DNA of 691 bases, taken from the NCBI RefSeq assembly GCF_003334765.1, contig NZ_QOWT01000106.1; one strand, given 5' to 3'. How positions within the stretch are numbered: the stretch's first letter is position 1; each line of letters opens with the position of its first letter. Both the position numbers and the translations under genes were made by a program. Source of the stretch: Escherichia coli (GTDB lineage Bacteria > Pseudomonadota > Gammaproteobacteria > Enterobacterales > Enterobacteriaceae). Below are positions 1-691 of the stretch, piece after piece. Under the pieces are notes generated by a model. That model had not been told where the DNA came from. It did no database searches and saw only the letters and a list, made by a program, of their open reading frames with translations.

Positions 1-691
1 ACACGCGCCTGGTTACCCATACACAGGGAACAGCCAGGGATCTCGATACGCGCACCACTCTTACCGAAGACGCTGTAGTAGCCTTCTTCGGTCAACTGTG
101 CGGCGTCCATACGGGTTGGCGGTGCCACCCACAGGCGGGTCGGCAACTGACCTTTATGCGCATCCAGCAGTTTACCCGCAGCACGGAAGTGACCGATGTT
201 GGTCATGCAGGAACCGATAAACACTTCGTCGATCTTCTCGCCCTGTACCGCAGACAGCGGACGCGCGTCATCCGGGTCGTTCGGAGCACAGAGGATTGGC
301 TCTTTGATATCCGCCAGATCGATGTCGATCACTGCCGCGTATTCCGCATCTGCATCGGCTTCCAGCAGCTCAGGATTCGCCAGCCATTTTTCCATGCCCT
401 GAATACGGCGTTCCAGGGTACGATGATCGCCGTAACCTTCCGCGATCATCCACTTCAGCAGGACGATGTTGGAGTTCAGGTATTCGATGATCGGTTCTTT
501 GTTCAGCTTGATGGTACAACCGGCAGCAGAACGCTCGGCGGACGCATCGGTCAGCTCAAAGGCCTGCTCAACTTTCAGATCCGGCAGACCTTCAATTTCC
601 AGGATGCGGCCAGAGAAGATGTTTTTCTTGCCTTTCTTCTCAACGGTCAGCAGACCTTGTTTGATCGCATACAGCGGAATAGCGTGTACCA
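1..691 (-). CDS. acnB: Aconitate hydratase B (aconitase B; bifunctional aconitate hydratase 2 / 2-methylisocitrate dehydratase), internal fragment truncated at both ends by the window
   Basis: Manual translation of the reverse complement gives an uninterrupted frame of 229 complete codons (codon n at plus-strand coordinates 690-3n to 692-3n; first complete codon 687..689, last 3..5; partial codons at 690..691 and 1..2). The peptide starts [231 protein letters not shown] recognise this as the catalytic region of enterobacterial AcnB, including the aconitase-family Fe-S ligand motifs SCMTN and [11 protein letters not shown]. Codon usage is typical of a well-expressed E. coli gene (CTG Leu, CGT/CGC Arg, GGT/GGC Gly, AAA Lys, GAA Glu). 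Identification is from recall, not a search. Confidence 0.95.
21..32 (-). other. acnB: Codons for predicted [4Fe-4S] cluster ligand cysteine pair (C-S-L-C in motif [13 protein letters not shown]), within acnB
   Basis: Plus-strand aca at 30..32 and aca at 21..23 are minus-strand tgt (Cys) codons separated by Ser-Leu, in the conserved aconitase motif [12 protein letters not shown]. They lie 59 and 62 residues downstream of the first ligand Cys, matching the family C-x58-C-x2-C spacing. By recollection these are Cys769 and Cys772 of AcnB. Confidence 0.75.
207..209 (-). other. acnB: Codon for predicted [4Fe-4S] cluster ligand cysteine (first of three; in motif [11 protein letters not shown]), within acnB
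   Basis: Plus-strand gca at 207..209 is minus-strand tgc (Cys), in frame within the motif [13 protein letters not shown]. The aconitase family uses one Cys in an S-C-M/T-T-N context plus a downstream C-x2-C pair as cluster ligands. If my recollection of AcnB numbering is right this is Cys710. Confidence 0.75.

Follow-up and report, generated by a model that had tools for sequence, protein, structure and literature searches.

Nine GATC sites in a 691-bp segment of Escherichia coli acnB: a probable by-product of protein sequence and codon usage

A 691-bp stretch of Escherichia coli DNA, analysed here over its full length and hereafter called the window, contains nine GATC tetramers, and we conclude that these sites are very probably a by-product of the amino acid content of the AcnB segment encoded there and of the way in which this segment is encoded, with no evidence of selection on their density or of a local regulatory role. 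The sites do exist and their number is nominally high, but it stays within the reach of chance given the protein, the codon usage and the multiple looks taken at the data. The window is an ordinary GATC-rich stretch and not a special methylation element. The result is in itself of little importance; its main lesson is methodological, namely that intragenic GATC density should be judged by a protein-conditioned null and by the retention of matched codons before a function of Dam, SeqA or MutH is inferred.

The acnB segment and its GATC sites

The window is an internal fragment of the coding sequence of acnB (aconitate hydratase 2/2-methylisocitrate dehydratase), coded on the minus strand over positions 1–691 and corresponding to nucleotides 1646–2336 of the 2598-nt gene, or approximately codons 549–779 of 865. 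The acnB frame begins at base 689 and proceeds leftwards, and it includes 229 complete codons (positions 3–689, residues 550–778) with a partial codon at each end. Minus frame 2 was the sole stop-free sense frame in an open reading frame scan of the window. Every one of the 5426 complete E. coli genomes contained a full-length match lying under a CDS annotated as acnB (identity 95.4–99.6%), and the AcnB segment shared 79–100% protein identity with its orthologues in 79 species; the frame is continuous, and it is homologous to and collinear with annotated acnB. The gene had been named as acnB in a preliminary description of this DNA, and both the stop-free minus frame 2 and the annotation of the matching CDS bear this out. 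The same description was right that acnB is coded here, but the strand that it took as coding needs correcting to minus. An Rfam scan returned one match only, to the PA5194 RNA thermometer of Pseudomonas at positions 250–339 of the minus strand; it scored 24.8 bits (E = 0.012), below the gathering score of 60, and is regarded as chance.

An exact search placed GATC at positions 39, 231, 317, 327, 425, 444, 489, 578 and 663, in agreement with the preliminary description at every position. Most of these sites had been assigned to Asp or Ile codon junctions, which in fact holds for all nine. On the coding strand, three of the nine sites have the phase GAT-C (Asp) and six have the phase xxG-ATC (Ile), while the third possible phase is absent. 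The segment contains 19 dipeptide positions that are able to encode GATC, nine of which are used.

The leftmost site (39–42) spans a Glu-Ile junction (GAG-ATC) and is present in 14 of the 24 Enterobacterales keeping a permissive dipeptide, compared with 4.2 expected, and the next (231–234) spans a Lys-Ile junction (AAG-ATC; 12/25 Enterobacterales). The sites at 317–320 (Asp-Leu, GAT-CTG; 23/24 Enterobacterales, 11.8 expected) and 327–330 (Val-Ile, GTG-ATC; 15/23 Enterobacterales, 5.4 expected) form a 10-bp pair, and are thus one helical turn apart. A 19-bp pair is formed by the sites at 425–428 (Asp-His, GAT-CAT) and 444–447 (Met-Ile, ATG-ATC; 10/26 Enterobacterales, 14.0 expected); in K-12, the junction at 425–428 is Asp-Arg (GAT-CGT), with GATC preserved. 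The remaining three sites are found at 489–492 (Pro-Ile, CCG-ATC; 12/25 Enterobacterales), at 578–581 (Asp-Leu, GAT-CTG; 14 of the 16 Enterobacterales having Asp-Leu there) and at 663–666 (Ala-Ile, GCG-ATC; 7/26 Enterobacterales, 5.5 expected). The distribution of GATC over K-12 acnB as a whole (L002, 19739–22336; near 131–134 kb in K-12-type coordinates and at 128.1–130.7 kb in NZ_CP062239.1) is uneven, as 10 of the 15 sites fall within gene nucleotides 1509–2298 (site starts 1509–2295), and a 691-bp stretch from gene nucleotide 1416 contains ten.

The origin of these sites that we favour combines protein content, codon choice and chance. An Ile-rich segment with conserved Asp-Leu, Asp-Pro and Asp-Arg/His dipeptides would supply the junctions, and because Ile is almost always written as ATC, many of these would become GAT-C and xxG-ATC junctions. 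The rest of the count would come from ordinary sampling variation, and related species would hold the same codons by descent. Codon and amino acid usage had already been proposed as the probable cause in the preliminary description, and the Ile-rich, ATC-biased composition of the segment, together with the location of every site at an Asp or Ile junction, agrees with that proposal.

Site counts under null models and in orthologues

The number of sites expected in the window is 2.69 under uniform composition (688/256) and 2.94 under the measured genomic frequency, and the approximately threefold excess initially reported is therefore correct; the Poisson probabilities of at least nine sites are 0.0019 and 0.0033, respectively. 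Dinucleotide shuffles gave a mean of 4.34 sites, with at least nine in 3 of 200 shuffles. When the protein was held fixed, the expectation was 4.38 with the codon usage of 34 neighbouring genes (P = 0.008), 4.96 with that of whole acnB (P = 0.017), 4.89 with that of acnB, aceEF and lpdA (P = 0.016), 4.25 with a 68,000-codon table evaluated analytically (P = 0.0065) and 4.28 with empirical, context-aware dipeptide GATC frequencies (P = 0.005). Permutation of the synonymous codons inside the window, which keeps its own codon counts, raised the expectation to 6.59 (P = 0.11). The synonymous shuffle suggested in the preliminary description as a check thus produces at least nine sites in 0.5–1.7% of cases under genome or gene usage, and in 11% with the codon counts of the window itself.

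The expectation climbs under the protein-fixed nulls because the segment is rich in Ile (8.7%, compared with 5.7% in the genome sample) and writes 17 of its 20 Ile codons as ATC. Roughly one in five ordinary coding windows had a protein-conditioned expectation at least as high. The step from 2.7 sites under uniform composition to 4.3–5.0, which covers roughly a quarter to a third of the excess, can be put down to protein sequence and general codon usage; most of what then remains (up to 6.6) reflects the local preference for ATC, and the residue is no larger than chance allows in a post hoc pick. Among the 136 strand-symmetric tetramer classes, GATC ranked first in the window by over-representation (P = 0.0034); this is approximately the level expected of the best of 136 tests, and it is therefore not significant after correction.

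The single-window P value of 0.005–0.017 under genome or gene codon usage still speaks against a by-product. As background, we used 200 kb of K-12-type chromosome from four arbitrary places (200–240 kb across analyses), a sample of a size that gives a rough estimate of the extreme tail. The GATC frequency in the 200-kb background was 4.26/kb, or approximately one site per 236 bp, which agrees with the published genome mean of 4.1/kb (PMC2912659). At least nine GATC sites occurred in 1.5% of 691-bp sliding windows, which fell into 10 separate regions per 200 kb; extrapolated from these 200 kb, approximately 230 such regions would exist per genome. The protein-conditioned null was applied to 166 non-overlapping 229-codon windows from long open reading frames in four unbiased chunks, and it gave an observed-to-expected ratio of 1.02, with P ≤ 0.05 in 4.8% and P ≤ 0.0065 in 1.2% of windows (the latter in 0.6% of overlapping windows). 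The null is well calibrated. There are approximately 5900 such windows per genome, about 38 of which are expected by chance to be as extreme as the acnB window. A 691-bp coding window of E. coli with a threefold tetramer excess is nothing unusual when its protein and codon usage are held constant.

A blind scan of the background for at least nine GATC sites per 691 bp flagged pyrD (12), rlmKL (10), uup (9) and etk (11), all four of them published stable SeqA targets, and the same criterion also flagged gyrA (11), nrdA, rcsD, yfaL, glpA and the matP-ompA region. The GATC-dense background regions at this threshold included L004 197–1487, 3249–4446, 5114–5817 and 38926–40084, and L006 30356–32101 and 39754–40761. 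With the protein held fixed, values such as those of pyrD (P = 0.003) and gyrA (P = 0.004) are to be expected by chance when this number of windows is tested. By this standard, and within the 200–240 kb sampled, even certain published SeqA targets with dense GATC look no more unusual than chance predicts.

We further compared orthologues, with each species represented by a single genome; the scan yielded 80 acnB loci, 79 of them codon-aligned without gaps, and each region was scored against the codon usage of its own acnB. In the 26 Enterobacterales, the window region contained 205 GATC sites compared with 143.3 expected (ratio 1.43), whereas the rest of the gene had a ratio of 0.89, and P ≤ 0.05 was reached in seven species. 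In the 15 genomes of Pasteurellales, Vibrionales, Aeromonadales and Alteromonadales, the corresponding values were 64 and 65.2 (0.98), with 0.85 for the rest of the gene and P ≤ 0.05 in no species. In the 38 genomes of Pseudomonas and others, they were 202 and 159.7 (1.27), with 1.22 for the rest of the gene and P ≤ 0.05 in three species. To our knowledge, Pseudomonas lacks Dam, SeqA and MutH, and its acnB was enriched in GATC to a similar degree at these same junctions (ratio 1.39). Pasteurellales, Vibrionales, Aeromonadales and Alteromonadales are taken to carry Dam and SeqA. This assignment has part of its basis in PMC2912659. In Pseudomonas and allied genomes (L031–L081), the excess extended over the whole of acnB, with 1.22–1.27 times the GATC count expected from codon usage, and was not limited to the window region; this whole-gene excess could stem from shared ancestry among close species or from codon context.

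The contrast in Enterobacterales between the window region and the rest of the gene, with seven of 26 species individually at P ≤ 0.05, counts against a by-product, and so do junctions that are nearly fixed, such as the Asp-Leu junction at 317–320. Codon-pair context does not have the strength to account for them. We considered it as the main cause of the near-fixed GAT-C junctions and rejected it, since the genome-wide effects in E. coli are small (DL 1.06, DP 1.11, VI 0.94, AI 0.81; 1.07 for phase 0 overall and 0.95 for phase 2 overall) and the context-aware null barely shifts the expectation.

Codon retention argues against selection for the sites as such. At conserved residues over the whole of acnB in 25 Enterobacterales, ATC was retained at a rate of 0.58 where it forms GATC and 0.60 where it does not, GAT at 0.76 and 0.73, and G-ending codons preceding Ile at 0.60 and 0.58, respectively. 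Where the residue is conserved, the third codon positions of the Enterobacterales had an identity of 0.64–0.79 to the window, which indicates that the sites are inherited. In a tetramer control with the same null in Enterobacterales, the z scores had a standard deviation of 2.27, and GATC ranked 14th of 216 by ratio and sixth by z; GAGC, AAGA, GAAG, TGAG and GCGT deviated more. In the orthologous region (L007–L030, L034, L073), GAGC, AAGA, GAAG and TGAG exceeded GATC in over-representation because the minor codons GAG and AAG are retained site-specifically in this part of acnB.

The 1.43-fold excess in Enterobacterales (z = 5.2 under independence) was therefore rejected as a sign of selection, in view of equal codon retention, the tetramer standard deviation and common descent. 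The window had been picked for its high count in E. coli and the relatives are not independent of it, and thus the excess in Enterobacterales is no evidence of selection. In the SeqA-bearing relatives, we found no GATC excess beyond descent and codon usage, given equal retention and the ratio of 0.98 in the other orders. Cross-species 'conservation' of an excess of this kind can come wholly from shared ancestry and the choice of window.

SeqA, mismatch repair and other GATC systems

In a Dam+ host, the nine sites would be methylated and then briefly hemimethylated after passage of the replication fork. While hemimethylated, they could bind SeqA, especially at the 10-bp and 19-bp pairs, and could be used by MutH. 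Such behaviour of Dam, SeqA and MutH is generic to any GATC-rich stretch, as at thousands of other sites, and requires no selection here. Transient, generic binding of SeqA at the window after replication is likely on this basis. The caveat about Dam methylation, SeqA and MutH in the preliminary description is fair as generic biology, and a specific or selected role is not indicated. A structural basis for the cooperative binding of SeqA dimers to pairs of sites on one helical face has been described (PMC2691817).

According to Sanchez-Romero et al. (2010, mBio, PMC2912659), the SeqA ChIP signal tracks the number and spacing of GATC sites, with spacings of approximately 10 or 20 bp, and below 50 bp, favoured. 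The same study defined 12 stable SeqA targets with 4.7–12.9 GATC/kb, such as pyrD, rlmL, uup and etk, with a pattern that is conserved most strongly in Enterobacteriaceae and only weakly in distant gammaproteobacteria. The acnB window resembles these targets in being intragenic with a density far above the genome mean (13.0/kb, compared with 12.9/kb in pyrD), in having some neighbouring sites approximately 10 and 20 bp apart, and in an above-average density of the acnB region in Enterobacteriaceae orthologues that fades in distant gammaproteobacteria. Its density also exceeds the genome average of 4.1/kb. Of its eight neighbour distances, three (10, 19 and 45 bp) fall within the range that predominates in SeqA-bound regions, and the other five are 85–192 bp. 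It also differs from the stable targets in that the high density of acnB is confined to approximately 0.7–1 kb, the whole gene having 5.8/kb in K-12 (6.2/kb in the accessory copy described below). Moreover, acnB is not one of the 12 stable targets and is not named in the main texts of PMC2912659 or PMC3384311.

These likenesses invite the interpretation that selection has made the 3΄ part of acnB, with its dense GATC sites, into a SeqA block kept in Enterobacterales, in which closely spaced sites on one face of the DNA would hold SeqA once the fork has passed and so help to organise new DNA, or would delay remethylation and transcription of acnB. We consider this interpretation highly unlikely. 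The local density rises to 28/kb over positions 317–492 (at most five sites in 176 bp), compared with a genome mean of 4.1–4.3/kb, and two pairs of sites lie within 31 bp where 0.44 are expected, but the number of equally extreme windows in the genome fits chance. The 10-, 19- and 45-bp spacings suit the in vivo preference of SeqA, and the match of the first two to the distances preferred in SeqA-bound regions is a point against a by-product. The excess in the Enterobacterales region and a conservation pattern like that of the published stable targets also favour a block, but codons forming GATC are retained no more than matched codons, GATC is not an outlier among tetramers, the other SeqA-bearing orders have no excess, and acnB is missing from the stable targets with a modest density over the whole gene. 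Expression is also to be weighed here, as acnB is well expressed under aerobic conditions, which we counted against a SeqA block. SeqA occupancy is reportedly lower where transcription is high (PMC2912659). The more specific proposal, in which the 3΄ third of acnB, with 10 of the 15 K-12 sites and with pairs at one and two helical turns, has been selected across Enterobacterales as a preferential SeqA block, is slightly less probable still; if true, passage of the fork would be coupled to the organisation of a gene of central metabolism or to its transient silencing.

Selection for mismatch repair is another conceivable source of the density, and one to which we attach very little probability. 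MutH incises hemimethylated GATC and repair efficiency drops with distance, so that a high density might protect a conserved part of acnB through a shorter distance from mismatch to nick, and the raw density of the window is in keeping with this. Mismatch repair nevertheless has a working range of roughly 1 kb, and the genome average of one GATC per approximately 236 bp is already well inside it. The slight depletion of the rest of acnB (0.89) fits poorly with gene-wide repair protection, and no GATC-specific codon retention was found.

The least credible alternative, which we almost wholly discount, is that the window belongs to the GATC regulatory network of Henaut and Riva, proposed to block intragenic transcription on a cold or oxygen shift, a condition in which the stability of hemimethylated DNA is greater. 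Riva et al. (2004, BMC Genomics, PMC493266) defined clusters as at least four motifs with a mean neighbour spacing below 18 bp, following a preliminary screen for a pair less than 8 bp apart or a triplet spanning under 62 bp, and energy and central-metabolism genes, the class to which acnB belongs, were said to be enriched. The likeness lies in the enrichment of GATC inside the coding sequence of a metabolic gene, and the pair at 317 and 327, with six bases between the sites, passes the pair part of the preliminary screen, whereas the tightest triplet (425–492) spans 68 bp and does not pass the triplet part. The formal definition is another matter, since the tightest four consecutive sites of the window have a mean spacing of 42.3 bp instead of less than 18 bp. 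In addition, the published cluster genes, 76 in E. coli and 57 in Salmonella (PMC493266, Additional File 1), do not include acnB, whose sole appearance is in the all-genes sheet of File 3. Membership of the window in a cluster of this type is ruled out by spacing and by the gene list.

Two further kinds of GATC arrangement provide a comparison for the by-product that we favour. Sequestration clusters of the oriC type have 11 GATC sites in about 245 bp. Like them, the acnB window has multiple sites, some of which pair up on one face of the helix; unlike them, it is sparser (9 in 691 bp) and lies wholly in a conserved frame, with each site explained by a codon junction. Dam switches of the pap and agn43 type have GATC within regulator-binding sites of a promoter or intergenic region, whereas all nine sites of the window are in the acnB frame, 1.6–2.3 kb into the gene. 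Among the papers listed by a literature search on GATC and acnB, none addresses this question, to judge from titles and abstracts.

A second acnB copy and the lineage of the window

No exact match to the window was present among the 5426 complete E. coli genomes. Matches at 99.4–99.6% identity occurred in 23 of them, all of which have two acnB copies, and the best single-copy (native) acnB allele was 99.0% identical to the window. In strain 746, the copy that matches the window best is the accessory acnB (L001, 11739–14336, corresponding to NZ_CP023353.1, 917273–919870), which has 96.8% identity to K-12 acnB over the whole gene. It belongs to an island with IS66, IS21, ISL3 and Mu remnants at its borders, where it lies directly downstream of citCDEFXG and genes for an MFS transporter, an amidohydrolase and a GntR regulator. 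The island, with its citrate-lyase (cit) genes and acnB, looks like an accessory citrate/aconitate module.

Residue 638 (codon CAT, window positions 423–425, minus strand), whose codon adjoins the GATC site at 425–428, serves as a lineage marker. It is His in the window and in the island copy, and Arg in K-12 and E. albertii. In the 79 other species, His did not occur at this residue, which was Arg in 30, Ala in 22, Val in 14, Pro in 10, Lys in two and Glu in one. Since the window is nearest to the accessory copy and shares His638 with it, the window probably derives from the accessory-copy lineage. The conclusion regarding GATC is unaffected by this lineage, because the native K-12-type acnB and the accessory copy share the same nine sites.

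A plasmid origin of the window was rejected, as no plasmid record matched at 99% and most of the 'plasmid' matches were chromosome-sized or very large. Several of the PLSDB records with acnB (NZ_CP134663.1, NZ_CP141089.1, NZ_OL790696.1 and CP125156.1) are 4.8–5.4 Mb long, and by this length evidently mislabelled chromosomes; others are 0.27–1.3 Mb.

On the antisense (plus) strand, frame 2 is without stop codons throughout window positions 3–691. The stop-free stretch extends over 293 codons in K-12 (L002, 19673–20551) and 507 codons in the island copy (L001, 11577–13097), and it is probably a shadow open reading frame arising from codon bias.
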